From: Spirochaetia bacterium UBA2205
GTDB taxonomy: Bacteria; Spirochaetota; UBA4802; UB4802
Length of the DNA: 64,000 nucleotides
Reading direction: 5' to 3'
Assembly (NCBI GenBank): GCA_002328585.1
Contig: DCUV01000032.1
Span: forward strand, 189,569-253,568
Each line of letters starts with the position of its first letter. Within the stretch, counting starts at the first letter, position 1. The notes under the pieces are model-generated. The model did no database searches, was not told the origin of the DNA, and saw nothing but the letters and a program-made list of their open reading frames with translations. The position numbers and the translations under genes are program-made. Shown one piece after another: positions 3,800 to 46,033 of this stretch.

Positions 3800-3906
3800 A
3801 ATATATTTTTACTAAGTGTATTAATTCATGTTTGAAGTATTTTCTTTTATTTGTCGATGAGTTATGTAATATGATACTATTTGCATCAATTTAAATTTAA
3901 TAAACC

Positions 3907-4773
3907 ATGAAAAAAAAAGACCTGTCAATGTTTGTGCGATTCTGGGGAGTACGTGGTTCAGTTCCTACACCGGGGATAAATTTCATTAAATATGGCGGCA
4001 ATACTGCCTGTGTTGAGCTGAGATGTGGGAATACTATCATGATATTTGACGCCGGTACCGGCATCAGAATGCTGGGAGAAAGCCTTGCTAAAGAATTTTT
4101 TGATAAACCCATCCAGGTCCATTTATTTATCAGTCATACACACTGGGATCACATACAGGGGTTTCCTTTTTTTGCACTGGCATATAACAAAAATGCAACA
4201 ATCAATTTTTATGGTGGCCATAGTGTCTCAACACTTGAAAAGCTCATTTTAGGACAAATGGACAAAGAATATTTCCCTGTGTCATTATTTGAGTTATCAT
4301 CAAAAATTAATTTTATAGAACTTTCCCAAAATGCATTTACTATTAACGATATCGTTATATACTATACCCATCTTTTCCATCCGGGATTATCGTTAGGATT
4401 CAGGGTTGAGTATGATGACAGAGTGTTTGTATATGCCAGTGATAATGAAGTTTTAAACGATCCCGAATTGGGTGAATATAATTTAAAAAATATTGGCACA
4501 CTGATTAAAAATGCTGATATACTTGTCACTGATTGTCAATATACACCCGATGAATACAAAAGCAGGATAGGATGGGGCCATTCATCTATAGAAATAGTTG
4601 CACAGGTAGCATCACGGTTTGGCGTTAAACATCTGGTAACATATCATCATGATCCATCTCATACTGATGATGATATTGCTAAAACTATCCGTAAAGTCCG
4701 CAAACTTTCACTTCCCATCAAGATTACAGCAGCACAAGAAGGAACAACACTGTATCTTTCAAAAAAGTATTGA
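3907..4773 (+). CDS. MBL-fold metallo-hydrolase
   Basis: HTHWDH metallo-beta-lactamase motif and a downstream HH. AT-rich promoter region upstream. Confidence 0.7.
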   Translation: MKKKDLSMFVRFWGVRGSVPTPGINFIKYGGNTACVELRCGNTIMIFDAGTGIRMLGESLAKEFFDKPIQVHLFISHTHWDHIQGFPFFALAYNKNATINFYGGHSVSTLEKLILGQMDKEYFPVSLFELSSKINFIELSQNAFTINDIVIYYTHLFHPGLSLGFRVEYDDRVFVYASDNEVLNDPELGEYNLKNIGTLIKNADILVTDCQYTPDEYKSRIGWGHSSIEIVAQVASRFGVKHLVTYHHDPSHTDDDIAKTIRKVRKLSLPIKITAAQEGTTLYLSKKY

Positions 4774-4806
4774 CCATACTGCCCTGCACATTATCATTAT
4801 GCTGTT

Positions 4807-5421
4807 ATGCATAGTTTACGATTGCACAATACCTATCTACTCATGCGCCATGCTCAAAGCAAGGCAAACCATATGCATATCATTGTCAGCAATCCTGAAG
4901 TTGGTGTTAATGATTATGGTTTAACACAGGAAGGGAAGAATGAAGTTATAAAAGCAATAGCGCATTGCAATGAACTGAAATCAGTTAAATACATCTATAC
5001 ATCAGATTTTTTACGTGCATATGAAACTGCCATGATTATTGCCGGGCATATGGATATCATCCATGTCAAATTTGATACACGTTTACGCGAACGTTATTTT
5101 GGCCAATTTGAAGGAACAGACAGTGAAAACTATCAACGAATATGGGATATGGATTGCCACAATGCAAATGATCCAGTATGTTACAATGTTGAACCCATAC
5201 ATACTGTAGCAAAAAGGATGATTTCATTTTTGTTGGACTGCGAAACCAATCATATAAATGATACTATTTTAATTGTTTCGCATGGCGACCCGTTACAGAT
5301 ACTTTATACCGTATCTATAGGTTTACCTATTAATAAATTTAAAACAGCATCTCATTTCAATAATGCAGAATTAAGACTATTGCCTTCACGTTTCACCATT
5401 GATGAGGAGTTGATCACATGA
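4807..5421 (+). CDS. histidine phosphatase family protein (phosphoglycerate mutase-like)
   Basis: N-terminal LLMRHAQS resembles the RHG catalytic motif. A downstream SHG matches the second His motif. Confidence 0.6.
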   Translation: MHSLRLHNTYLLMRHAQSKANHMHIIVSNPEVGVNDYGLTQEGKNEVIKAIAHCNELKSVKYIYTSDFLRAYETAMIIAGHMDIIHVKFDTRLRERYFGQFEGTDSENYQRIWDMDCHNANDPVCYNVEPIHTVAKRMISFLLDCETNHINDTILIVSHGDPLQILYTVSIGLPINKFKTASHFNNAELRLLPSRFTIDEELIT

Positions 5422-14920: not shown

Positions 14921-17077
14921 TTAACTGCGTCTGGCAAGCGGCAATGCAACACCGGCAACTATTAGCACCGTACCTAACCAGACAAGCCAGATAAGTCGTT
15001 TAAACGATATATCAACAATAACCGAATCAGGAGGAAGAACTGCATTGTCATGAGCATCAATATGTAAAACAACTATCGCATCCCTTACATCAAAATCAAG
15101 CAGCACAACAGTGCGGTTTGTGCCGGGAATCATAGCTTTTATATCCTGTCGCATATCATTGTTATAGGCTACGCCGGGTTTAACCGTATACTGTGTTCCC
15201 TTATAGGTAATGGTACATTGTGCATAGACAATTGCATTCCCTTTCATCATGGCTACCCTATCAACATCAAAGCTATCAAAACGTATGGTGATATCACCAA
15301 GCGTATTTATCTCACCTTTTTTGAGCATCACCTGAGTCAGCTTATCATACCCGCTCATATATTCAACAGGTGAAATATACGCATCATAGAGTATATTGTA
15401 ATCAATAGAGGGCTCCCTGAATAACTGGTTTGTTCTGGTATCAATAAAATAGGGTGTGGTAATGGTTTTGTCTTTGTTGTAGTAACTATAATGAAAAACC
15501 AGAGCGTTTTTAGTGCCGCCTGTCATCCCGACAAGCTCAAGTGTGATAGGATAAATGGTTTTTTTCTCTTTCTGGATTAATTCAGTATGATAATCCAGCG
15601 ACTGCGTTTGTGATGTGATTATACCAATAACAAGCAGCGCCACACCACTGTGGGCTACCCTTGCAGCTACATTCAAATGGGTATACGGGAACAAGCCTTT
15701 TATATTGGTAACAATAATAAAAAAGCTTACAAACATTAGTATTAATGGGAATATGTGGATTGTTTGCCCAATATATAAAAGGATTGTTAAACCTGAGGCG
15801 ATAGTTATCGGTATAACAAAAGTCCTGATTTTCAACGGTAATTTTTTTGTGAAAGTAGCAAGCAGTAATAATACTACGATAACAAAGCCAACTGGTTTTA
15901 CAATGCTTATGTAATACGATTCTCTAACGGTCGATGGTTGCGATAGTAATCTGGTAAGCAGCGGCATACAGGTGCCAATAGTAACAAACAATGCAAAAAA
16001 TAACATTGCAGCAATACCGTATACCATTATATTTTCTTTTGAAAGTACATTATTCTCAAGAACTTTGCCACATGCATCCCTGTAGCGATAGATAATCAAG
16101 CCAATGCTTAGCACAACTATCGTGCTCAAAAACAACAAAAGATCGGTAAAATTGCCAGCCCCGCTGAATGAATGAACCGAAAAATCTGAAAGCACACCAC
16201 TTCGTGTTAAAAATGTGCCAAAAAGGACAAAAACATATACCCCTATTGCCATGGCAATATTAGCCCGCACCAGAACCTGTTTCCGTTTCTGCAGTATTAA
16301 TCCATGCAATAGTGCAATACTGATAAGCCATGGGATAAGAGATGCATTCTCAACGGGGTCCCAACCCCAGTAACCACCCCATCCCAATACCTTGTATGCC
16401 CAGTAGCCTCCTAAAAAAATCCCGGCGCCCAGGGCCAACACGGTTGCAAGCACATAACGGTAAGCAGTAAGTATAATGGAATAGTTATTATATAGTAACG
16501 ATAATATTGCATAAATAAATGCTATGGTAGATAATGCATAGCCAATAAAAAGAACCGGCGGATGAATGATCATCCAGAAATCCTGTAATAATGGATTAAG
16601 CCCTGCACCATCTGTGGGAATTATATTTACAGGAAAATTTTTTGATGTATCCCATATATAGGCAAATGGATTATTATTAATACAATGAATCATAAAGATA
16701 AGCGACACTAAACCCAATATTGTTAAAAAGCTTTGTTTCAATTGTTCTTCCCTGTTAACAGCAATAATCCCGGCAATCATTATAAAAAATGTCCATAAGG
16801 CGATGGAACCTTCCTGACCTGCCCATACAGCGGCAATACGGTATAGTACTGGCAAATCTACTGATGAATAATGATATACATAGGAATATTGAAATTTACA
16901 GGTAACAAATGCCATTAACAAACATATAAGCATTAATGCTACAATTCCTGTTGCTGCATAATACAGATATTTTGCTAAAGTAAATATTTTTGGTTTACTC
17001 AATGAATATACAGCTATCATTGTCGATAGCATAATCAATAGTGCTGGAATCCATGGCAGATAATATAAACTATTCAT
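14921..17077 (-). CDS. ccmF: cytochrome c-type biogenesis protein CcmF (heme lyase)
   Basis: WGGYWGWDPVENASL WWD motif, about 15 TM helices, 718 aa. Confidence 0.85.
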   Translation of the reverse strand: MNSLYYLPWIPALLIMLSTMIAVYSLSKPKIFTLAKYLYYAATGIVALMLICLLMAFVTCKFQYSYVYHYSSVDLPVLYRIAAVWAGQEGSIALWTFFIMIAGIIAVNREEQLKQSFLTILGLVSLIFMIHCINNNPFAYIWDTSKNFPVNIIPTDGAGLNPLLQDFWMIIHPPVLFIGYALSTIAFIYAILSLLYNNYSIILTAYRYVLATVLALGAGIFLGGYWAYKVLGWGGYWGWDPVENASLIPWLISIALLHGLILQKRKQVLVRANIAMAIGVYVFVLFGTFLTRSGVLSDFSVHSFSGAGNFTDLLLFLSTIVVLSIGLIIYRYRDACGKVLENNVLSKENIMVYGIAAMLFFALFVTIGTCMPLLTRLLSQPSTVRESYYISIVKPVGFVIVVLLLLATFTKKLPLKIRTFVIPITIASGLTILLYIGQTIHIFPLILMFVSFFIIVTNIKGLFPYTHLNVAARVAHSGVALLVIGIITSQTQSLDYHTELIQKEKKTIYPITLELVGMTGGTKNALVFHYSYYNKDKTITTPYFIDTRTNQLFREPSIDYNILYDAYISPVEYMSGYDKLTQVMLKKGEINTLGDITIRFDSFDVDRVAMMKGNAIVYAQCTITYKGTQYTVKPGVAYNNDMRQDIKAMIPGTNRTVVLLDFDVRDAIVVLHIDAHDNAVLPPDSVIVDISFKRLIWLVWLGTVLIVAGVALPLARRS

Positions 17078-17449
17078 TTATTTTTGCTCCCGGGTATACT
17101 TTGATGGGCATTTAACCAATATTTTATCTGCTTCAAACATCTGTTTTTTGTTATTATAGATGCCGATTGCAACAACGCTGGTAGCATGTTCAAAGTTCAA
17201 CGGTTTGGCACCCCTGTATAGTACCGTCATCCGTTCCAATGCATTATCTTCTATCACAAATATAAAACCATCTGTGGTATTCTGCACAGGCACTGTTTTA
17301 ACCAGCCTGCCAATTATCTGAACATAATCGGGATTATTCTTTGCATCATCAAAGGGAACATACGGTGTTAAAAGCCCCTTAAACGAAAAGAGTGCTACAG
17401 CAGAACATATAACAATGATTGCCACAATAATGATCTTACTTTTTGCCAT
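17078..17449 (-). CDS. ccmE: cytochrome c-type biogenesis heme chaperone CcmE, CxxxY variant
   Basis: N-terminal TM anchor and an OB-fold-like body. The C-terminal LVKCPSKY occupies the position of the canonical LAKHDENY heme-binding HxxxY. Confidence 0.75.
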   Translation of the reverse strand: MAKSKIIIVAIIVICSAVALFSFKGLLTPYVPFDDAKNNPDYVQIIGRLVKTVPVQNTTDGFIFVIEDNALERMTVLYRGAKPLNFEHATSVVAIGIYNNKKQMFEADKILVKCPSKYTREQK

Positions 17450-17609
17450 TGACCCTCTTTTCCAGCTGTTTTATTTTACGGTGTAAAACAACAAGATAGC
17501 ACACTATTCCACACCATACAACCGCAGATACCCAGAAAAGCGTTTTTGAATAATTTGAATCTGTCTGCGCCAAAAACTGCATTGCGGTAACTATCGCATA
17601 TAATTTCAT
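17436..17609 (-). CDS. ccmD: heme exporter protein CcmD (small membrane protein)
   Basis: 57-aa ORF missing from the ORF track (<60 aa). Its ATG lies 1 nt after the ccmC stop and it overlaps the ccmE start by 14 nt. Single TM helix plus a basic tail (HRKIKQLEKRVNGKK). Confidence 0.55.
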   Translation of the reverse strand: MKLYAIVTAMQFLAQTDSNYSKTLFWVSAVVWCGIVCYLVVLHRKIKQLEKRVNGKK

Positions 17610-17610
17610 A

Positions 17611-18258
17611 CTATTCCTCGTGCAATTTTGATTTCAGTACATAAATCCGCACCCACAATCCAAGCAATATATAGTACAAAAGAGTAAATGATACCAACGA
17701 TATAGCAAGCACCAATCGCATTTCTGTATCCAGCATCAATTGTCCCTGAGCATTAATGACAGGCTCAGGATGCAGTGTTGGGTAAAGCCGTGGTGCTACA
17801 AAGATTAAAAATGGTGATGCAACAAACGCAATGATGAGATACACACTTTCTAACATAGGGGCTTTTGGATTACCGCTAACAATCTGTTGCAGGCTGAAAT
17901 AGGCAATATACAATAAAAGCAATAGTGTGATGGAGGTTTCACGCGGGTCCCAGTTCCAGTAACTGCCCCACATAACCTTTGCCCACAACGAGCCAGTAAT
18001 TACGGTAAGGATGCTAAAAAAAAGACCTATGTGTGCAGAACTTCGTGCATACACTATATAGTTTATTTTTGACTTTTTCAAAAACGATAGCGAAGCAATA
18101 CCTGCTACTGCAAAAGCCAAACACGATACCCACGCAAGAGGCACATGGAGGTATACTATACGGCTTGTTTCCCCTAATATAGCCGCTGGAGGCACCCATA
18201 TATAGATTAAATACAATGACAGCATCATGACAATGCCATTTAATAGTATTACAATCAT
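17611..18258 (-). CDS. ccmC: heme exporter protein CcmC
   Basis: WGSYWNWDPRE WWD motif, about 6 TM helices. Confidence 0.85.
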   Translation of the reverse strand: MIVILLNGIVMMLSLYLIYIWVPPAAILGETSRIVYLHVPLAWVSCLAFAVAGIASLSFLKKSKINYIVYARSSAHIGLFFSILTVITGSLWAKVMWGSYWNWDPRETSITLLLLLYIAYFSLQQIVSGNPKAPMLESVYLIIAFVASPFLIFVAPRLYPTLHPEPVINAQGQLMLDTEMRLVLAISLVSFTLLYYILLGLWVRIYVLKSKLHEE

Positions 18259-18275
18259 AGCTATTCTCGTTACTA

Positions 18276-18938
18276 TTAAAATTCGCGCCAGATATAAGGA
18301 AATAATAAATACGATACCATTCCCAGAACCATTGAAAACGCAAGTAGAAAAATTATAGCGCTTAATGGAGAAAAAACCTGCTGTTCAAAGCACCTGGCTG
18401 TAGATTGTATTGCAACAGTAAAAAGCGGTAATACCACCGGGAAAGCCAATATGGTAAACAACCCTCCCCGTGCACCGGCTAATGCTGCAATAGCTCCTAT
18501 AACCGTTGTTGCAAAAGCAAGCGATAAACTTCCAGCAATGAGTATTGCTATAAGATAGATACCGTGATAGACAGAAACTGAGATAACAAAGACATAGATA
18601 ATGATGACCATAATGGCAATAACAACCATTACACAACAATTAATCAAAAGTTTTGAAAGATAGATAACAACAGCCGGATAATGTATTACACCAAACAGTG
18701 CAGTCGACTCTTCTATTTCTCTGAAAAAAACATGCGATAGCGTATTCATCCCGGAAAAAAAAATGATTATCCATAGTATAGCAGCATGGAGTAAAGGACT
18801 ATTGATGATACCACCTGTTGCAAATCCAATGGAAATAGTAACAATGACACTGAATGATAAGACAATTGAAACGATAATACGACTTCTGAATTCAATCAAT
18901 ATATCCTTCTGGATGTTCCGCCATAATGCCTTAATCAA
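18276..18938 (-). CDS. ccmB: heme exporter permease CcmB
   Basis: 220-aa polytopic membrane protein between ccmA and ccmC. The conserved FSRE-like region (FFREIEEST) fits CcmB. Confidence 0.75.
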   Translation of the reverse strand: MIKALWRNIQKDILIEFRSRIIVSIVLSFSVIVTISIGFATGGIINSPLLHAAILWIIIFFSGMNTLSHVFFREIEESTALFGVIHYPAVVIYLSKLLINCCVMVVIAIMVIIIYVFVISVSVYHGIYLIAILIAGSLSLAFATTVIGAIAALAGARGGLFTILAFPVVLPLFTVAIQSTARCFEQQVFSPLSAIIFLLAFSMVLGMVSYLLFPYIWREF

Positions 18939-19527
18939 GCACTATACTCCTTTTACAAAAGTTCAACTCATGAGCATCATTTGTTGCAATGAAAATAGCC
19001 GTTGTTGGCTGTACTTTCTCCAGTAAAGAAAAAAGCACCCTTTTACCCTGCTCATCCAGATTGCTGCCGGGTTCATCTAAACAAAGTACACTGGCTTTTT
19101 TTAAAAATGCAAGTGCTAACTTAACACGCTGAATCATACCTGTGGAATAAAACATAAGCATGGTATTGCTATGGGGCGATAGTCCCAGTACATCTAAAAG
19201 CTGCACTGCATCATCATCAACAGTCCCAATTGCAAACGTAATATTTTCAAGTGCAGTCAGATATTTATACACATTAATATACGGTGCAGCAAAACCAATA
19301 TAGTTTCTGATATATGCAGTATCAACAGGTTTATCATTATACCAGTATGCAACGTTTCCACTATCAGGTGTCATAACTCCTGCTATAATCTTAAGCAAGG
19401 TTGACTTGCCACTTCCATTAGGACCTGCAATGGCAAGGGACTGCCCTGTAGCAACACTAAATGACATATCCCTGAATAACATTCTGGTATACCGTTTTGA
19501 AAGATTACTGGCTTTAACCGTTACCAC
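18931..19527 (-). CDS. ccmA: heme exporter ATP-binding protein CcmA
   Basis: Walker A GPNGSGKST, an ABC signature-like STGMIQR and Walker B LCLDEP. Confidence 0.85.
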   Translation of the reverse strand: MVTVKASNLSKRYTRMLFRDMSFSVATGQSLAIAGPNGSGKSTLLKIIAGVMTPDSGNVAYWYNDKPVDTAYIRNYIGFAAPYINVYKYLTALENITFAIGTVDDDAVQLLDVLGLSPHSNTMLMFYSTGMIQRVKLALAFLKKASVLCLDEPGSNLDEQGKRVLFSLLEKVQPTTAIFIATNDAHELNFCKRSIVLD

Positions 19528-19533
19528 AACACC

Positions 19534-20925
19534 TTACAATATAATATCTTTTTTTGCAGTTGCCATCTCAATAATATCAAGTTTGACAGCTTTTTCCTTC
19601 ATTACGGTATCAACTGCTTTTTGATCAGCAATTCTGTACAGCAACCGCACCTTGATAGTATAGCTACCTTTTAAGCCTTTTGGTAAAATAATGGTGCTGG
19701 TAATTTTTTGTTTGGGTGGAATCCTGTTGTCAGAGAGTACCTCCTTAGCTTTTGCAATGTTCATAACTGGCTTGCCGTTACCATCACCAAAAACAGTTTT
19801 AAAAATTATTGTATTATTGGGCAAATAACCCTTTTTATCAGCCTTCCCTACTGCATACACCTCTCTTCCATACTGATTGACAACTACTATCTCAAGCCAC
19901 ATCTGCCGCACATCAGTAAGCCCTGTTGGAAGTTTATGACCGGCACCAACATTGGTTACAGCAATACCAACCGTACCACTGTTACTGTCACCGGTTTCAA
20001 TTTCCAGCAGTGCTGCATTTTTCAACCGTTCCTGTGCCATCTTGGCTTTCACAGTATCCTTAAATAATCCAGGGATAACACTATTTCCGCCAACAAAATA
20101 ATGAGTAAAGATATGATCACGTTGTGGACCGCCAAACGCTGCAAAACCGGGATTAGCAGGGCGAGGCGTCGAGCCGGTTGCAGGCACCCCTGGTCGGTGA
20201 TACATGTGACAACCCTGACAGGGCACCGTTGTTTTGGAGTCACCGGTGTTATAGGGGCTTTTTGACCATTCCTCAAAGGTTGTCTCCAATTTTGTTCCAT
20301 AAACCACATGACGTACATCATGGCATGTCCCGCAAAAATCAGCTTTTGTATGGAATGATGAATATGCTGCTGTATGCCAATCGGGATTAGCATCCTTAAA
20401 AGGTCCACGCTTTACTCCAGGATCCGCCTCACCATTACCTGGTTTATACACAAATCGTGCGTTGTAATGTTTCTTTGCTTCAACAATAGTATGACAGTAA
20501 TCGCACTGTATACCTTCCATGGTTATTTGTGGCAGGTCCTTTTCCATGGATAATTCTTCAGTTACCGATAATGGCTTACCAGTAATATATCCCACAGGGA
20601 TGTGGCATTTTACACAGCTTTCTGCCTCTTTTAGTTCATCATTATTGACAGGATTTTGACTTTTGCTATCATCCAGATAAAACCGTGCAAACTCTTTATA
20701 GATGATATCCTTTTGAGCTACATTATGCATGGAATTTTTCCACTGTTCATATATCTCATCATGACAACCACCACATGTGGAAGGATTGATAAACTGTGCT
20801 AATGTATAATGAGGCGTTGATTTGCAGCCAAGAAAAAGTGCATACCCAACACATAAAACAAAACTAACGGTAATTATTATTTTTGATTTCATACTGTATC
20901 CCTTACTCCTGTTTATTCTCATCAT
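19534..20925 (-). CDS. pentaheme c-type cytochrome lipoprotein
   Basis: Lipobox LFLGC. Five CxxCH motifs (CGGCH, CVKCH, CDYCH, CGTCH, CQGCH). No CxxCK. About 220-aa non-heme C-terminal region. Confidence 0.85.
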   Translation of the reverse strand: MMRINRSKGYSMKSKIIITVSFVLCVGYALFLGCKSTPHYTLAQFINPSTCGGCHDEIYEQWKNSMHNVAQKDIIYKEFARFYLDDSKSQNPVNNDELKEAESCVKCHIPVGYITGKPLSVTEELSMEKDLPQITMEGIQCDYCHTIVEAKKHYNARFVYKPGNGEADPGVKRGPFKDANPDWHTAAYSSFHTKADFCGTCHDVRHVVYGTKLETTFEEWSKSPYNTGDSKTTVPCQGCHMYHRPGVPATGSTPRPANPGFAAFGGPQRDHIFTHYFVGGNSVIPGLFKDTVKAKMAQERLKNAALLEIETGDSNSGTVGIAVTNVGAGHKLPTGLTDVRQMWLEIVVVNQYGREVYAVGKADKKGYLPNNTIIFKTVFGDGNGKPVMNIAKAKEVLSDNRIPPKQKITSTIILPKGLKGSYTIKVRLLYRIADQKAVDTVMKEKAVKLDIIEMATAKKDIIL

Positions 20926-31500: not shown

Positions 31501-33309
31501 TTATTTGTTTTTATTAATAATTATCTCATAGTCCCTGCCGGCATTCCAGAAAATATACCCCTGTGTGCCGGTATCAGTACATGCCTGTATCTGCTTCTGT
31601 ATATAGTCATATCCCCAGCCCGGGGAAAGCATGTTAAACGCCTGCAGGTAAGGGCGCACTGTTGCCTTTGAATTGATATATGCCCTGCTAATACTTTCAC
31701 GCACTATTGTATAATAACCCTCTGAGGTTATCTTCCCATTAAAAAATTTCCTCCCATAGTGCGACGGATACACCATAGGGCAGAGCACATCCACAATGCC
31801 TGTCATTGCCTCAATATCCTGCCCTAACCATTGACCAAATTCATACCATACAGTAAATCCATACACATCTGCTGATACAGGCACGGCAAGCGATGCTTTT
31901 GCTGTACGCAAAAAATCGGTAATGGCTTCATACTTATATATGCCGTTATCCGGTTTAAAGGTAAACACACATCTATTGACCGGGCCATCCGTAGGGAAGC
32001 GTACATAGTCAAACTGTATCTCATCAAAGCCTGCATCCTGTGCCTGCTGTGCAATCGCAATGGTATACCTGTGTACAAACTCGCTGTACGGATCAACCCA
32101 GTATTCTTTTGGATTTCCCTGCCATGCCTTTTTTGTTGCAGCATCAACAATTGCATACGTATGCTTAAAACCATTAAATAAATGCTTATCCTTAAAAACC
32201 ACCATACGCCCTATTACCTGTATGCCATTGGCGTGACAATAATTGCACAGCTCATGTAAAGGCAGTGATGATTGCAAAGCACCTATCACACCTGCTGTTT
32301 CATTGTTTATGCCATACACATTGCCATAATCATCTTTAATGTCAAACACCAGCGCGTTGCATCCTGAGCGTTTTGCATACCCCACACACTTTTTGATAGC
32401 CTGCCATGAGGTAGGCGTGGCGGCATATAATCCTCTAATGGAATCGTTTCTGGTTTTCGCTGCTTTTACAAAAATATAATGGGTGCCATCGGTCAATACG
32501 GCACAACAAAAGTTTTTTGGCGATAGTTCCTGATAAACAAATGTTCCGTTGTTATTTACAACCAGTTTATCACCATCAACTATCGCCCAGCCACCTTCGT
32601 AAAGAGAACATCCATAGTAATGACCGCCATTCCCTGCAAACACCATCTTCCAGCCTGACGCACCGTATGAATATACCTGCGGTGTAAAATGTGTTGCCGC
32701 CCGTACCGGCGAGCCACCGGAAACATGCGCAATTGTTTCATAAAAGCCAATGCTGTCCGAATACATCTTCCTGGGCAAACCGCCGTTTACTGCAACAAAC
32801 CTGTTTGCCGTATGACGGTATATGCCATTCCACGATGTTCCCACAACAAGCTGCCCGCCCTTTGCATAGAGCGCAGTAATACATGCATTGGCAGGAAGTC
32901 CTGCTAATGGTATAACCTCCCAACGTTTGCCCGCATCACCTGATGTATACAGCGTGTATTTTGTTGCACAGTACATACGGGTGGGGTCATAGCCATCAAC
33001 ACAAAATGCTGATATGCTTCGATACTGATTACACGGTGAATGTATGGTGCGTGTATATGCGCTTGCAGGGGTTATATTTTCCCAGTAACTATCGCCACCA
33101 TTATTTTTAAAAATACCATGCTGCGATGTTGTAAGGTATATGATTTTCCCATGAACCTGAATATCATTGATGGCAATGTTTGCTGATAATCCTTTACATT
33201 TTTCTTCATGATAATATAAAAAGCCATTGTTTTGTACCAGCAATGGCTTCCATGAAGCATATACCGTTGAAGAAAAAACAAGAATAAGGCTAAGCGCTAA
33301 ACTTTTCAT
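31501..33309 (-). CDS. secreted BNR-repeat protein with C-terminal putative glycoside-hydrolase TIM-barrel (DUF4015-like) domain
   Basis: Signal peptide, Asp-box (SGDAGKRW), and C-terminal motifs FDEIQFDYVRFP and MVYPSHY typical of GHL/DUF4015 domains. Confidence 0.6.
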   Translation of the reverse strand: MKSLALSLILVFSSTVYASWKPLLVQNNGFLYYHEEKCKGLSANIAINDIQVHGKIIYLTTSQHGIFKNNGGDSYWENITPASAYTRTIHSPCNQYRSISAFCVDGYDPTRMYCATKYTLYTSGDAGKRWEVIPLAGLPANACITALYAKGGQLVVGTSWNGIYRHTANRFVAVNGGLPRKMYSDSIGFYETIAHVSGGSPVRAATHFTPQVYSYGASGWKMVFAGNGGHYYGCSLYEGGWAIVDGDKLVVNNNGTFVYQELSPKNFCCAVLTDGTHYIFVKAAKTRNDSIRGLYAATPTSWQAIKKCVGYAKRSGCNALVFDIKDDYGNVYGINNETAGVIGALQSSLPLHELCNYCHANGIQVIGRMVVFKDKHLFNGFKHTYAIVDAATKKAWQGNPKEYWVDPYSEFVHRYTIAIAQQAQDAGFDEIQFDYVRFPTDGPVNRCVFTFKPDNGIYKYEAITDFLRTAKASLAVPVSADVYGFTVWYEFGQWLGQDIEAMTGIVDVLCPMVYPSHYGRKFFNGKITSEGYYTIVRESISRAYINSKATVRPYLQAFNMLSPGWGYDYIQKQIQACTDTGTQGYIFWNAGRDYEIIINKNK

Positions 33310-34972
33310 GGAACATGCTCTCGTTCATGATGATATAGGTGTATCCTTGCTCGGTTAAAAAAAGTTGGCGGTTATGAGCAAAATGTTCCTCAACCGTATG
33401 AGCGGTAATGATTGAATAAAAGTAAGCGGTATTATCGCCTGGCTTTGGGCGCAAAATCCTCCCCAGCCGTTGTGCCTCTTCCTGCCTTGAACCAAATGTG
33501 CCTGACACCTGAATGGCAACGTTTGCATCCGGCAGGTCAATAGAAAAATTTGCAACCTTTGATACAATGAGCCGCGTAATAGTACCATCTCTAAATTGTT
33601 TGTAGAGCTCTTCGCGCTCCTTTACCGGTGTACTTCCGGTTATGATAGGATAGTTAAAACGCTCTTTTATTATTTGCAACTGATCAATATATTGTCCAAT
33701 AATCAATATTCTGTCTTTGGGATGTGCGTTGAGGAGCCTTTCAATGTAGTATAGTTTTTTTTCGTTTTCTGATGCTATTCTAAATTTTTGCCTGTCGCCT
33801 GCCACGGTGTATTGATAGCGTATGCTTTCAGGCAGTTCAATGCGTATCTCGGAACAGATTGCCTTTGCAATCCAGTTGCATTCTTCCAGCATCTTCCATG
33901 GCATATCAAATTTTTTAGGCCCAATGAGGCTAAATACATCTGTCTCAAGTCCATCCTCGCGCACCAGTGTGGCGGTAAGCCCTAACCTGCGTTTTGATTG
34001 AATCTCGGCAGTCATCCTGAACACTGGAGCTGGCAGTAGATGTACCTCATCGTATACAATAAGCCCCCAGTTGTTTTCCGTAAACAGTTTAAAATGTTTA
34101 AATTCATCTTCTTTTTTTCGACGGTAGGTTAATATGTTATAGGTGGCGATAGTTACCGATTTTATATCCTTAACATCACCGGAATACTCACCAATCATGT
34201 CAGGTGGTAGTGTTGTCTTATCCAGCAGTTCATCAATCCACTGGCGCAATGCAACGGTGTTGGTTACAAGGATAAGCGTCTTTGTTTGATAGATATGCAT
34301 GATGCCCATCCCAACAATGGTTTTCCCCGCACCACAGGGAAGCACAACAACACCGCTTCCCCCTTCATCACTGCCATGCCTATAAAAGCTGTTTATTGCG
34401 TTTTGTTGATAATCACGGATAACAAACGGACTACCACTTTGCGTAACCGTTCGCAATGCAAATGGACAGGGGTCACCATCAATATAGCCGGCTTTATCCT
34501 CAACAGGAAATCCTATTTTTATAAGAGCCTGTTTTATATGTCCACGACTGTATGGTTTTATTACCAGTTCATAGTCGGATAACTGGCTATCAATAAACTT
34601 TTGTATGGATTTATGGGTAACTATCTCACGAATGATATGAGCATCATTACTTTGCAATATACAATTTTCATTGTGTTTTATTAATGTCAAAAGTCCATAC
34701 CGCTGCATCTGTTCTTTAATGGTGGTGACAACAATTGATGGTACATCATACCGGGAATACTGTGCAATTCGCTCAAGTATTTCTTTTGTAGTTAATCCCG
34801 ATGATGCTGCATTCCACAGGGATAATGGTGTGATCCTGTATGTATGTATATGTTCAGGACTTTTTTCAAGTTCGGCAAATGGAAGAATAGCATCCCGCAC
34901 CTCTTCATATAGCGGGTTGTCTACTTCCAGCAGCAGAGTATTATCACTCTGAACGATAAGTGGCTGTATCAT
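33290..34972 (-). CDS. XPB/Ssl2-family DNA repair helicase (SF2)
   Basis: RDYQQNAINSF, SGVVVLPCGAGKT (Walker A), VYDEVHLLPA (DEVH box), GLTATLVRED, and the N-terminal XPB damage-recognition-like domain. Confidence 0.85.
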   Translation of the reverse strand: MIQPLIVQSDNTLLLEVDNPLYEEVRDAILPFAELEKSPEHIHTYRITPLSLWNAASSGLTTKEILERIAQYSRYDVPSIVVTTIKEQMQRYGLLTLIKHNENCILQSNDAHIIREIVTHKSIQKFIDSQLSDYELVIKPYSRGHIKQALIKIGFPVEDKAGYIDGDPCPFALRTVTQSGSPFVIRDYQQNAINSFYRHGSDEGGSGVVVLPCGAGKTIVGMGIMHIYQTKTLILVTNTVALRQWIDELLDKTTLPPDMIGEYSGDVKDIKSVTIATYNILTYRRKKEDEFKHFKLFTENNWGLIVYDEVHLLPAPVFRMTAEIQSKRRLGLTATLVREDGLETDVFSLIGPKKFDMPWKMLEECNWIAKAICSEIRIELPESIRYQYTVAGDRQKFRIASENEKKLYYIERLLNAHPKDRILIIGQYIDQLQIIKERFNYPIITGSTPVKEREELYKQFRDGTITRLIVSKVANFSIDLPDANVAIQVSGTFGSRQEEAQRLGRILRPKPGDNTAYFYSIITAHTVEEHFAHNRQLFLTEQGYTYIIMNESMFHEKFSA

Positions 34973-39113: not shown

Positions 39114-40316
39114 CTACAATAACACATCAATTAACATGTCCAGATGATCCATAAGTTCTCTTGTAATGAGGAAGTTCTTCCTTACATGTTCTTTTCCATT
39201 TTTCCCCATACTGATTCTAAGCTCTTCATTTTTCAGAATCTCAATTACTTTTTTGGCACATCCATCAATATCATAAGGATCAATAAGGAATCCGTTTTCA
39301 CCATCTATGATCTGTAATGGTATGCCACCAACATCAGAAGCCACTACCGGCGTTCCCTTCCATAAAGCTTCTGAAACAGTTAAGGCAAATCCTTCTCTCA
39401 ACGACTTTTGTAATACCACTGCTGCTTTGGTTTGTAAAATATTGACAAGAACATTGTTTTCCAAGGTAAATAAAATAACATCCTTCAAACCTTTTACTTT
39501 TTGCTGAATTTTATTATAAATGTGCATGCCCTCAGGGTCATCACTTGCCATTGAACCACATAAAATGAGATAACAGTCAACCTCTTGTTTAACCTTTTCA
39601 AAAACTTTTAATACACCTTCAGGATCCTTCCATTTATCAAAACGTGATATTTGTACAATAAATGGTTTATCAGTAGGGATTCCAAATTTATTTATATATT
39701 TATCCTCAACAGCTTGCGAAAGACGAATATTTTTTACAGAAAGAGGATCTATAGAAGGATGGATGATGCGCTGAGGTATCGGGACATCATTTTTTTTATA
39801 TTTCTCATGAGAAACGATCATCAAATCATAATGGAGAATAAACGTTTTCAAATAATCCCATAATTGGACGTTTTGATTAGTAATATCTATATGGCATCGC
39901 CATATCCATGGTTGTCTTTTTCTATAAAATTTAATCATAGATAATGGCTGCGGATCATGAACAATAACGCAATCATGATTTATATGAGTAAAACGTGCAA
40001 AATTTTTATTTGTTTCCTCATATAACTGGCATTTCATTTTTGTAAAGTGTATATAGTCACCCTGCAATGCATTATGAAATTTTTTTGTTACCGAAAAAAA
40101 ATCAGGCGCTCCATGCAGTATTCTCCACCCTGTAAATACACCAGCATCATTCATCAATATTACAAGATTATTTAATATCTCAGCTACACCACCACCCTGA
40201 TATGTTGAATTAATATTCACAATATGTTTTTTTGAGAGTTTAGTCGCTTTACTGTATAGATTGCTTAAAACAGAATCATCTATAATACCCTTATAATCAT
40301 CAAGACTCTTATGCAT
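39114..40316 (-). CDS. treT: trehalose glycosyltransferring synthase TreT-like (GT4)
   Basis: NSTYQGGGVAEIL, FFSVTKKFHNALQG, HDPQP...WIWRCHID, HPSIDPLS, SRFDKWKDP, DDPEG, REGFALTVSEALWKGTPVV..VGGIPLQIIDGENGFL. These match conserved TreT blocks. Confidence 0.75.
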   Translation of the reverse strand: MHKSLDDYKGIIDDSVLSNLYSKATKLSKKHIVNINSTYQGGGVAEILNNLVILMNDAGVFTGWRILHGAPDFFSVTKKFHNALQGDYIHFTKMKCQLYEETNKNFARFTHINHDCVIVHDPQPLSMIKFYRKRQPWIWRCHIDITNQNVQLWDYLKTFILHYDLMIVSHEKYKKNDVPIPQRIIHPSIDPLSVKNIRLSQAVEDKYINKFGIPTDKPFIVQISRFDKWKDPEGVLKVFEKVKQEVDCYLILCGSMASDDPEGMHIYNKIQQKVKGLKDVILFTLENNVLVNILQTKAAVVLQKSLREGFALTVSEALWKGTPVVASDVGGIPLQIIDGENGFLIDPYDIDGCAKKVIEILKNEELRISMGKNGKEHVRKNFLITRELMDHLDMLIDVLL

Positions 40317-40317
40317 A

Positions 40318-42531
40318 TCACATCTCTGCTAACGTAGCAAGCAGTTTTCTTACTTCACTGTAATTTAGTATATTATAGTGCGCATATGATTGTATCATAC
40401 CCACTCTTAATGTATATGCAGATTCGGGAAGCACTTTAAAAAGATATTCATCTGTCCAATCATCTCCAATGGCAAGAATAAAATCATAATTGATATTTGA
40501 TATAAGTTTAAGCACTGCACTACCCTTATCTATTCCAGCATTTTTGATTTCTATTACTTTATTCCCTTGCATAACCAAAAGATTCATATTGGAAGTAAAA
40601 CTCAACAAATAATCTGTCAACTCTTTTACTAAAATAGAACTCATTTCGGGGTCAGATCTGCGGTAATGCCAGACTAAAGAATATTCTTTTTCTTCAATAA
40701 ATGAACCTGGCAGACGGTCAGTATATATTTCTAAAATTTTTTGTACTTCTTCTTTCCATTCATTAGTTGGCATGATATTTATTTCCCAATTTTTATCCTT
40801 TCTCTTTATCCAGACACCATGTTCAGCAATCAATATGATACCTAAAAATCCAAACCAATGATCCAATGTATTTTTATCTCTGCCACTTACAATAGTAAGT
40901 GTATTCATAATATTCTTTGATAACAACTCAAGAAGATTTAAAAGATCTTTATCTGGCTTAGCTAAATCAGGACGCTTTTCAAACGGCACTAATGTCCCAT
41001 CATAATCCAGGCAAATGATCCTGTTTTTGGCTACTTTCATATCATTAAGTATTTTATCTTCAATAACTTTATTAAGTAATCGAGCATTTAATTTTAATTG
41101 ATCCTCTTTAACAGCCTTAACTTCTTGCAAAAAACTATCAGCCCATTTTATTATGTTGTAGCGTTCCAATCTTCTTTGCATAATTGTATTTCGTTGGTTC
41201 TGTTCTTCTTTTGAAATCTCAAGAGCTTCTACAAGTGCATTAACCATATCATTGATATCATTTGGATTTACTATAATTGCTTCTCCTAATTCACTGGACG
41301 CTCCTGCCATTTCACTTAAGATCAACACTCCTGTTTTATCCTCATGCGATGCAACATATTCTTTAGCAATAAGATTCATTCCGTCCCGCAAAGGTGTTAT
41401 CATTGCTATATCGCTGATTATATATAACGCTGCTAACCTATTAAAAGGTTCAAACCTGTATTGATAAACTATTGGTGTCCAGCTAACATTACCAAATTCC
41501 CCATTAATTTTTCCAACCATCTGATCTATATCTCTTTTAATTTTATCGTAATTTGCAACCCCTGTTCTTGATGGTACAACTATTAGTAGTAGCACTACTT
41601 TATTATGCAATTGAGGATAGTTAGTTAAAAATTTTTCAAATGCAAAGAGCCTGTTTAAAATCCCTTTTGTATAATCCAATCGATCTACCGATAAAATGAC
41701 TTTAACATCCGATAGTTTCTTGCTATAATATTTTATTGCCTTTTTTACTTCTTTTAGTCTAATTGCACTATTAAATTTTTTGAAATCGATCCCCATAGGG
41801 AATGTATCTACCCTTGCAACATTATTTTCCAGAATAATTTTATTCATATCATTACTGATTCCTAACAAATAGAGCACGCACCGTAAAAAATATTGCGTAT
41901 AACTATAGGTATGGAAGCCAATAACATTAGCCCCTAACAGGCCATACAGGATTTCTATTGCCCACTTTCGTGGAAGAAGTCTAAATATTTCATAGTCAGG
42001 AAAAGGTATATGAAGAAAAAATCCTATGGGATTGTGTAATGATTTGTTGAGCATCCCGGGTAATAACATTAAATGATAATCATGGACCCATACTATATCA
42101 TCATCTTTTATTATTTCCTTTGAAGTAGTATAAAATATTTCGTTTACCTTTTTATATGCTTTCCAATACTCATCATCGTAAATAGTATATTCAGTAAAAT
42201 AATGAAAAAGTGGCCAAATGGTTTTATTACAAAATCCAAAATAAAACTTATCAATGATATGCTCATCAATATATACTGGATAGCAATGTAACTCCCTCAT
42301 TAGCTTTTCTGTAAGCTCTTCCGCTTTTTTCTCATTTTGAAAATCAAATGTTCCTGGCCACCCTATCCATATATATTCAATATTTTTTGAGGTTGAATCC
42401 TTTATAAAATCGATATATGATTTTAATCCGGTTGCAAGCCCTCCCACACTTTCTTTAATAATCAATCTGCCATTTTTTTCAGAAACTGTAACGGGCAACC
42501 TGTTTGAAATAATTACTAAACGCATACTCAC
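40318..42531 (-). CDS. otsA: bifunctional trehalose-6-phosphate synthase/phosphatase (OtsA-OtsB fusion)
   Basis: GT20 N-terminus (LVIISNRLPV...GGLATGL...WPLFHY) and a C-terminal HAD phosphatase (ICLDYDGTLVPF). Confidence 0.9.
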   Translation of the reverse strand: MSMRLVIISNRLPVTVSEKNGRLIIKESVGGLATGLKSYIDFIKDSTSKNIEYIWIGWPGTFDFQNEKKAEELTEKLMRELHCYPVYIDEHIIDKFYFGFCNKTIWPLFHYFTEYTIYDDEYWKAYKKVNEIFYTTSKEIIKDDDIVWVHDYHLMLLPGMLNKSLHNPIGFFLHIPFPDYEIFRLLPRKWAIEILYGLLGANVIGFHTYSYTQYFLRCVLYLLGISNDMNKIILENNVARVDTFPMGIDFKKFNSAIRLKEVKKAIKYYSKKLSDVKVILSVDRLDYTKGILNRLFAFEKFLTNYPQLHNKVVLLLIVVPSRTGVANYDKIKRDIDQMVGKINGEFGNVSWTPIVYQYRFEPFNRLAALYIISDIAMITPLRDGMNLIAKEYVASHEDKTGVLILSEMAGASSELGEAIIVNPNDINDMVNALVEALEISKEEQNQRNTIMQRRLERYNIIKWADSFLQEVKAVKEDQLKLNARLLNKVIEDKILNDMKVAKNRIICLDYDGTLVPFEKRPDLAKPDKDLLNLLELLSKNIMNTLTIVSGRDKNTLDHWFGFLGIILIAEHGVWIKRKDKNWEINIMPTNEWKEEVQKILEIYTDRLPGSFIEEKEYSLVWHYRRSDPEMSSILVKELTDYLLSFTSNMNLLVMQGNKVIEIKNAGIDKGSAVLKLISNINYDFILAIGDDWTDEYLFKVLPESAYTLRVGMIQSYAHYNILNYSEVRKLLATLAEM

Positions 42532-42570
42532 CTACTTATCTATTTATTAATTATACAATAATCCATACGG

Positions 42571-43629
42571 CTACATCTTGCTTTTTGTTACATAAATAAG
42601 ACTTGTTGGATAGGCAAATTCAATGTTATGTTTTCCAAATTCATCCTTTATCTTAAGATTGATTTCCTGTTGTATGTCCATATATACATTGTAATCATTG
42701 CTGTTCACATAGTATACAATCTCAAAATTTAAACTAAAATCACCATACGAAAAAAAATGTGCTCTATCAAACGTTGTACCATCAAGATTTTCTATAATTT
42801 CCTTTATAATCTCTGGAATTAATGTTAACTGTTCTAGACTTGTTTCATAAACAACACCGATAGTAAAAACAACCCTTCGTCTATTCATTCTTTTATAATT
42901 GCGAACACGAGCATTGGCAAGGTTGGTATTAGAAATAATTATTTGTTCACCGCCTATACCCCGTATCTTTGACGACTTGATACCAATTTTTTCTACTGTA
43001 CCCATGAAATCTTTATCAATAATGATAAAATCTTCAATTTCAAAAGGACGATCAAAGAGCATAACAAAATATGCAAATAGATCTCCCAATATATTTTGAG
43101 CAGCTAATGCAACAGCCAATCCACCTATGCCAAGCCCTGCAATCAGTGGGGTAAGTTTGATCCCCAGATTTTCTAATAAAATAAAGATTGCAAACGACCA
43201 TACAAGAATCTGTATCAACGGATTCAATGCTCTTAATGCTTTTTGTTTTGTTACATTGCCTTCTTTTTGTATTATAGCGGAAATAAAAATTTTAATCCCA
43301 TTGAGAACAAACATCACACCAAATATAGTCATCAGTATTAATACAATAACATCCAATGCCTTCTTTAAGGAAGGATGTAATGTTAATTGTATAATACTGA
43401 TATAGAATGAACATATATATATCAAGGGGATGAATTTTTTTTCAAATGCTTCAACAGCAATATCATCCAATTCTGTTGTTGTTTTCCGTGACCATGATTT
43501 TAATGCTCTTATAATTATTGTTTTAAAAATATAAATAGCTATAACCGCAGCAATAAAAATTAACAAACTTATACAATAATCTTTTAATGTATTACCAAAC
43601 AACGTTATATTGAGCAACCTTTCAAGCAT
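42571..43629 (-). CDS. mechanosensitive ion channel MscS family
   Basis: TM3 region GIGGLAVALAAQNILGDLFAYFVMLFDRPFEIEDFI. Confidence 0.85.
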   Translation of the reverse strand: MLERLLNITLFGNTLKDYCISLLIFIAAVIAIYIFKTIIIRALKSWSRKTTTELDDIAVEAFEKKFIPLIYICSFYISIIQLTLHPSLKKALDVIVLILMTIFGVMFVLNGIKIFISAIIQKEGNVTKQKALRALNPLIQILVWSFAIFILLENLGIKLTPLIAGLGIGGLAVALAAQNILGDLFAYFVMLFDRPFEIEDFIIIDKDFMGTVEKIGIKSSKIRGIGGEQIIISNTNLANARVRNYKRMNRRRVVFTIGVVYETSLEQLTLIPEIIKEIIENLDGTTFDRAHFFSYGDFSLNFEIVYYVNSNDYNVYMDIQQEINLKIKDEFGKHNIEFAYPTSLIYVTKSKM

Positions 43630-44971: not shown

Positions 44972-45319
44972 ATTGCATTAATGTTAACTACATCCCTTTC
45001 TATTTCTATAATGATAACTGTGCAAATTGGGGTATTATATTGCTCACTATGCGATGCATTGTCACCCGTTTCATTATGGCAAATACTTATTGCCAATGTT
45101 GCCGTATAATTTTAAAATTATTTTACCACTGAAATCGTACTATAAATAAAATTAACTGCACCATACCATATACACACGCTTGCAATTTACCAATTTATCA
45201 TTGTAATTAACGAAATAGTCATAACCGGATCATAAATCACATATCCCAGTTTTTTACTTGACTTTCCATAATTATTAATTATAGTAAAACCAAATTTATA
45301 ATAATTACAGGAGGATGCT

Positions 45320-46033
45320 ATGCCACAGGAATTTAAAGCTGGTTGTACTCGTCCCACACCTCCCGAAGAAGCCGTTAAACCAATCTCTACTGAAAATACT
45401 ATTCAAAAAAAGGAGGAGAATGCTATGATACACGTTGGTCAAAAAGCCCCGGATTTTTCGCTTCCCGCATACCTGAAAGGGAAATTTGTTGAGGTTAAGC
45501 TATCTGAATACATGGGAAAGTGGGTTGTGCTTTGTTTTTACCCCGGTGATTTTACCTTTGTCTGAGCTACAGAGGTTTCTGCGGTCGCAGAAAAATATCC
45601 TGAATTTCAAAAATTGGGCGTTGAAGTGCTTTCTGCAAGCGTTGATAGCGTTTTTGTCCATAAGATGTGGAACGATTTTGAATTGTCAAAAATGGTAAAA
45701 GGTGGCATACCGTTCCCCATGCTTTCTGATGCTGGTGGAAATATTGGGACACTGTATGGTGTGTACAATAGCAGTGCCGGTGTTGAAAATAGAGGGCGTT
45801 TTTTAATTGATCCTGATGGTACCATTGTTGGCTATGAAGTTTTAACACCACCGGTTGGGCGTAATGTTCTGGAAACTATCCGACAAATTCAGGCTTTCCA
45901 ATTGGTTCGTGAATCTAAAGGAACTCAAGCAACACCTTCAGGATGGCGTCCGGGCAAAGACACGTTAAAACCAGCTCCCGATCTGGTAGGCAAGGTGTGG
46001 GAAGTTTGGTCTGTTGATAAAGCTTTTGATTAA
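45320..46033 (+). CDS. peroxiredoxin (AhpC/Prx1-like) with in-frame TGA at the peroxidatic position - candidate selenoprotein (Sec-Prx)
   Basis: ORFs 45320-45565 and 45614-46033 share one frame and are separated only by the TGA at 45563-45565. The conceptual read-through gives [17 protein letters not shown]..., matching FYPLDFTFVCPTE. An alternative start is the ATG at 45425 ([11 protein letters not shown]); both starts are preceded by AGGAGG. Confidence 0.75.
45576..45593 (+). promoter_or_regulatory. candidate bacterial SECIS hairpin (UUCUGC-GGUC-GCAGAA)
   Basis: 7-bp stem with a GGUC apical loop beginning 11 nt 3' of the in-frame UGA. The spacing and G/U-containing loop resemble the E. coli fdhF SECIS. 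Confidence 0.6.

Follow-up and report, generated by a model that had tools for sequence, protein, structure and literature searches.

The established bacterial pathway for selenocysteine (Sec) comprises SelA, SelB, SelC and SelD. Sec is found, e.g., in peroxiredoxins (Prx). A Sec-peroxiredoxin was purified from Eubacterium (Peptoclostridium) acidaminophilum, according to that part of PMC13188914 where Sohling 2001 is cited, and the protein is listed as an experimentally verified prokaryotic selenoprotein with a TxxU motif (PMC13188914). A survey from 2006 contained 12 Sec-peroxiredoxin genes (PMC1794560), and a survey from 2016 contained 91 proteins from 78 organisms, which placed the family seventh among the bacterial selenoprotein families (PMC5029168). 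These counts, together with the at least 80 species-level genomes found in the present work, contradict an earlier note on the DNA described here, in which Sec-peroxiredoxins were said to be rare in bacteria.

Here, we describe a gene, prxU, found in a 64-kb stretch of DNA (the whole of which is referred to as the window) from an uncultured spirochaete MAG, which is Leptospirales-like as judged from its closest relatives. Like the E. acidaminophilum PrxU, its product belongs to the NF040737 family, which carries the annotation thioredoxin-dependent, has Sec at the peroxidatic position in a TxxU motif and is without the canonical resolving Cys near the C-terminus. Unlike that protein, the window protein is of the long form, in which an N-terminal tail of 35 aa contains an invariant Cys, and the host is not a clostridium. 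The product shares the Prx1/AhpC fold with the typical 2-Cys peroxiredoxins, e.g., human Prx2 (1qmv), AcePrx-1 (4fh8) and S. typhimurium AhpC, as well as the pocket residues Pro75, Thr79 and Arg158 and a second Arg, Arg181 (E-values from 1e-48 to 1e-35), but differs from them in having Sec for the peroxidatic Cys, Thr205 for the resolving Cys and the additional N-terminal tail. The data discussed below indicate with high confidence that the locus is a working PrxU gene of the Prx1/AhpC fold in which UGA is recoded and selenocysteine is the peroxidatic residue. As a member of PrxU, a family that has long been known, the gene is ordinary, i.e., a re-discovery of a known kind.

The prxU Gene and Its Product

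The gene is a single open frame on the + strand (45320-46033), of which the only interruption is the TGA at 45563-45565 (Table 1). Translation and alignment confirmed that this codon is found at the peroxidatic position, as had been noted earlier; it is aligned onto the peroxidatic Cys in the sequence FTFVCPTE of 4fh8 and human Prx2, and the T-x-x-U motif is T79-F-V-U82. Naive ORF calling breaks the gene into two pieces of 81 aa (45320-45565) and 139 aa (45614-46033).

Table 1. Positions of features at the prxU locus, numbered from the first letter of the window
Feature	Positions	Strand	Details
Promoter-like site TTGACT-16-TATAGT	45258..45285	+	about 35 nt 5′ of the first ATG; 10 of 12 consensus matches only
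Shine-Dalgarno AGGAGG	45309..45314	+	serves ATG 45320; 64 of 80 loci have GGAG/GAGG ahead of the first ATG
prxU, long form	45320..46033	+	237 codons including Sec82; stop TAA 46031-46033
N-terminal tail, residues 1-35	45320..45424	+	motif K-x-G-C-[AT]-R-P; Cys9 codon 45344-45346
Internal Shine-Dalgarno AAGGAGG (45410-45416) and ATG (45425-45427, Met36)	45410..45427	+	probable second start
UGA codon, Sec82	45563..45565	+	peroxidatic position by alignment to solved Prx structures; TGA in 80 of the 80 best relatives
SECIS hairpin UUUCUGC-GGUC-GCAGAAA	45576..45593	+	7-bp stem, arms 45576-45582 and 45587-45593; GGUC loop 45583-45586
Thr205 codon	45932..45934	+	counterpart of the canonical resolving Cys at the C-terminus of 2-Cys Prx; QATPSGW vs EVCPAGW (phmmer to 4fh8/Prx2)

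With Cys put for the stop, the 237-aa form matches the NCBIfam equivalog NF040737, "peroxi_PrxU", with 400 bits over profile positions 2-232 of 233, where the curated cut-off is 270 bits. The 202-aa short form gives 385.6 bits, i.e., the score rises by 14 bits when the tail is included, and because the score of the long form extends over nearly the entire profile, the family model takes in the N-terminal extension. The same Cys-substituted protein matches the Pfam families AhpC-TSA (E = 2.8e-38) and 1-cysPrx_C, and the nearest solved structures found using phmmer are those of typical 2-Cys peroxiredoxins, 4fh8 (E = 1.6e-48) and human Prx2. Residues P75, T79, R158 and R181 are invariant among the 90 homologues aligned, and the Pro/Thr/Arg residues of the pocket align to those in the solved structures.

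The promoter-like site upstream of the gene (Table 1) is a candidate promoter, as suggested by its match to the consensus. When the gene neighborhood was compared across 81 loci, the commonest neighbor family was found in only 12 of these; prxU is therefore without an operon partner, and the gene appears to stand alone.

Conservation of the UGA Codon

A scan of species-representative genomes yielded 519 confirmed relatives, of which the best 80 were examined. In these best 80 of the 519, TGA is found at the same codon in 80 of 80 cases, at loci that span Spirochaetota, Thermodesulfobacteriota, Nitrospirota, Cloacimonadota, Fibrobacterota, Calditrichota and WOR-3. The sequence CFYPGDF is found at 76 of the 80 loci and CCYPGDF at the other four. 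On the 3′ side of the TGA, comparison with two of these loci, L001 and L002, gave pN values of ∼0.05-0.06 per site and pS values of ∼0.7-0.77, i.e., synonymous sites are near saturation. Judged from these values, the frame after the TGA is under strong purifying selection.

One of the two loci, L001, is a syntenic orthologue, at which prxU is surrounded by the same genes in the order membrane protein, YjbQ, prxU, deacetylase-like gene and the next gene, with neighbors that are 59-87% identical. In this orthologue both the TGA and the hairpin are retained, and the change of the loop from GGTC to AGTT is compensated. Orthologues in close relatives with the TGA and without the hairpin had been named in advance as an indication of a pseudogene; L001, which has both elements, shows the reverse.

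True Cys forms of the gene also exist. At the DNA level, L084 (from Desulfoferula mesophila) and L088 have TGC at the Sec codon and are without a perfect hairpin. In the wider AhpC family, alignment to solved structures shows a Cys at the position equivalent to Sec82. The L084 gene (6061-6723 in AP028679.1) is a Cys-form PrxU homologue with an AIRS/AIRS_C gene ∼2.3 kb downstream; this domain pair is that of SelD, but also that of ThiL and PurM.

In the window, TGA terminates 13 of the 56 large ORFs and is found internally in none of them, and a scan of the window for in-frame TGA codons gave no other credible selenoprotein candidate besides prxU. The region 3904-5421 was considered as a TGA-split gene and rejected; it consists of two separate genes, Lactamase_B_2 and His_Phos_1. 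In 103 of 120 database homologues (P0001-P0120), the Sec position is occupied by Trp. Given that TGA serves as a normal stop in the window, we infer that these Trp entries are an artefact of gene calling, in which code 4 was applied to short contigs, and do not reflect another code. Genes for Sec-peroxiredoxins would then be systematically mis-translated in metagenome protein sets.

A Hairpin Immediately 3′ of the UGA

The hairpin with a 7-bp stem and a GGUC loop that was described in the earlier note is recovered by ViennaRNA as well as by RNAalifold, and its first stem base is found 11 nt past the A of the TGA. When a 71-nt stretch of the window sequence alone was folded using ViennaRNA, the result was no better than that for shuffled sequences (z = -1.0). 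In a search against Rfam, the window was without a match at the gathering score, and the hairpin was without a match to a SECIS family even at E <= 10.

Comparison across loci gave a different result. Base-pair counts were obtained from 77 of the 80 sequences, aligned from the TGA to +45. In the hairpin, 99.5% of the cells are paired, compared to 41-71% in slid controls, and the observed covariation score was reached by 0 of 500 shuffles. Covariation is seen at all three pairs that are free to vary synonymously, i.e., those with members at codon third positions. In alignment columns, these are pair 15-30 (UA 49, CG 18), pair 18-27 (GC 45, AU 12, UA 7, CG 4, GU 1) and pair 21-24 at the ends of the tetraloop (GC 35, AU 34). 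The remaining four stem pairs never vary because they are fixed by the amino-acid sequence, and the central GU of the apical loop is invariant at the aligned loci. For 80 distinct sequences, which span -21 to +66, RNAalifold predicts this hairpin alone. The hairpin is thus under selection, and the evidence that it is real is the comparison across loci and not the fold of the single sequence. At the protein level, the peptide encoded over the hairpin, ATE[IVL]SAVAEK, is almost frozen in the Sec forms, whereas the Cys forms vary over the equivalent peptide (SALAAK, AAVASK, SAIAEK and others).

The element is similar to the SECIS of Escherichia (E.) coli fdhF in that a hairpin in the coding sequence, found immediately 3′ of the UGA, exposes a GGUC apical loop. 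The stem of the fdhF element carries a bulged U. In prxU the stem is a shorter, perfect 7-bp helix that is without the bulged U and without an extended lower helix. The G-U of the prxU loop is found at +22/+23, counted from the U of the UGA, compared to +23/+24 in E. coli fdhF, the sequence of which was folded for the comparison.

N-Terminal Tail and Start Sites

Both ATG codons, at 45320 and 45425, are preceded by a Shine-Dalgarno sequence of the AGGAGG type followed by "atgct", as had been read from the sequence previously. The N-terminal extension of 35 aa was then considered possible; the comparison shows that it is more than that. A tail that starts with M-x-E-E-x-K-x-G-C-[AT]-R-P is found in 81 of 81 genes (the window gene and the best 80 loci), where the motif is followed by a variable, Lys/Glu-rich linker in the 81 Sec-form prxU genes, and both Cys9 and Cys72 are invariant in 90 proteins. 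Because of this conservation of the motif and of Cys9, the long start at 45320 is considered to be real, and the extension is, by this comparison, the norm of the family. A reading of "KAGC" as part of a lipoprotein signal was rejected for lack of a hydrophobic signal peptide ahead of the motif.

The putative internal start is also conserved. The Met36 ATG is present at 81 of 81 loci, and at all 81 a GGAG/GAGG sequence is found 4-18 nt upstream, compared to a background rate of 9.7%, determined from comparable windows in other parts of the genes. The internal Shine-Dalgarno sequence is kept at the nucleotide level despite differences in the encoded residues, which are K-G-G, M-E-V, T-E-E or Q-E-A. 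In addition, the Cys-form gene L088, which is truly short and has stops in frame on its 5′ side, begins at the Met equivalent to Met36. Because the internal Shine-Dalgarno-ATG pair is conserved throughout and L088 starts at the equivalent Met, the gene probably gives rise to two isoforms, one of 237 aa and a tail-less one of 202 aa, from two conserved starts. The characterised PrxU of E. acidaminophilum is reportedly ∼203 aa long and would thus correspond to the isoform made from the internal start.

The tail is without a counterpart in solved Prx structures. In an AlphaFold model of a Cys-form homologue (P0108) the core is confident, while the tail has pLDDT values of 32-61 (predicted disordered), and in this model there is no evidence of docking of the tail on the active site. 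The low confidence of the tail in the model fits a flexible arm.

These data bear on the view that the protein would be a 1-Sec enzyme. It is true that the protein has lost the canonical resolving Cys, with Thr205 at this position, but a 1-Sec mechanism is not established because the invariant Cys9 and Cys72 remain and Cys9 could act as a resolving residue. A tentative possibility, which we consider rather unlikely, is that Cys9 is a resolving residue of a new type, carried on a swinging arm, that would form a selenenylsulfide with Sec82 and so take over from the lost C-terminal Cys; the internal Shine-Dalgarno-ATG start would then yield a tail-less, 1-Sec isoform alongside the tailed, 2-Cys-like isoform, both from a single mRNA.

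Genomic Context

A previous reading, in which no selA, selB, selD or tRNA-Sec was seen in the window, agrees with the present searches: ARAGORN identified no tRNA in the 64-kb window, and no selA, selB or selD was found with NCBIfam among the 27 ORFs of at least 300 aa. When the contig was extended past the two window ends by 9.1 kb and 7.1 kb, using flanks of 10 kb around genes close to these ends, no sel gene and no tRNA was found in the additional sequence either.

The window also contains, on the - strand, a cytochrome c maturation cluster (14921-20925) with a CcmF/NrfE-like gene (14921-17077) and small ORFs of Ccm size. Adjoining this cluster, a 463-aa protein (19534-20925) is weakly similar to the multihaem "(seleno)protein ExtKL" family, with 66.9 bits where the cut-off is 250, and no in-frame TGA was seen in its gene. 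A bacterial XPB-type DNA repair helicase (33290-34972, - strand; NF045503, 866 bits) is located directly upstream of a 602-aa ORF (31501-33309, - strand), which is without an NCBIfam match and may encode a partner nuclease. A group of genes at 39114-43629 (- strand) resembles an osmoprotection cluster, with a TreT-like trehalose synthase, a fusion of trehalose-6-phosphate synthase and phosphatase (974 bits) and a mechanosensitive channel of the MscS type.

Discussion

The proposal that the locus encodes a candidate Sec-peroxiredoxin with a bacterial SECIS element is supported by the score to the PrxU model, the TGA shared by all of the best 80 relatives, the covariation, the purifying selection and the orthologue L001. 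Because the TGA is conserved, the hairpin covaries, the downstream frame is under purifying selection and TGA is an ordinary stop in the window, the locus is considered to be a selenoprotein gene rather than a pseudogene, a sequencing error or the product of an alternative code, each of which is very unlikely. If a nonsense mutation had inactivated the gene in its active-site codon, next to a hairpin formed by chance, the insignificant fold of the single sequence and the lack of visible Sec machinery in the available 80 kb would be as expected. However, the identical TGA would then have to be explained in each of the 80 independent genomes with the best relatives, as would pN values of only ∼0.05 beyond the stop at saturated synonymous sites, the compensatory substitutions in the hairpin and the retention of both elements in the syntenic orthologue. 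A pseudogene is effectively refuted by these observations, and its probability is minute. An even smaller probability, close to nil, applies to an alternative code, in which TGA would be read as Trp or Gly, and to an assembly error, in which the true codon would be TGC or TGT. The Trp seen in the database homologues is what the former would predict, but TGA is used as a stop in the window, where prxU is the only gene with an internal TGA, and a Trp at the peroxidatic position would abolish catalysis; an assembly error would have to be repeated in 80 separate assemblies.

The UGA could also be read through in ways that do not, or do not only, involve Sec, e.g., as Cys or Trp when selenium is scarce, or SelB may have been lost from an organism in which the gene is decaying. 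The presence of true Cys forms in the PrxU family (L084, L088) is in line with such readings. Against them stands the maintenance of the hairpin, including the invariant loop GU, in prxU and in its syntenic orthologue, because the hairpin would be maintained in this way only as long as it is used by SelB. We regard non-Sec read-through as highly improbable, and recoding of the UGA to Sec remains by far the preferred reading.

On the basis of the known bacterial pathway, SelB in complex with GTP and Sec-tRNA(Sec) would bind the hairpin 11 nt past UGA82 as the ribosome arrives, and Sec would be delivered to the A-site in place of release factor 2. By analogy with Prx chemistry, the selenolate of Sec82, located in the Pro75/Thr79/Arg158 pocket, would then attack H2O2 or an organic hydroperoxide to form a selenenic acid, which would be resolved by a thiol, either directly by thioredoxin or possibly by Cys9 of the flexible tail. 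Thioredoxin would regenerate PrxU, where the term "thioredoxin-dependent" is a product name in NCBIfam only.

For annotation, the consequence is that standard gene callers either split prxU in two or translate its UGA as Trp, and because of this treatment PrxU is under-reported. In the literature searched, neither the conserved tail with its N-terminal Cys nor the pair of start sites was found to be described, and only these two features may be new. As for the organism, the sequence evidence makes the uncultured spirochaete a probable user of selenocysteine, and a Sec-peroxiredoxin suits an anaerobic or microaerophilic organism in which peroxide has to be removed fast, in a manner resistant to over-oxidation.
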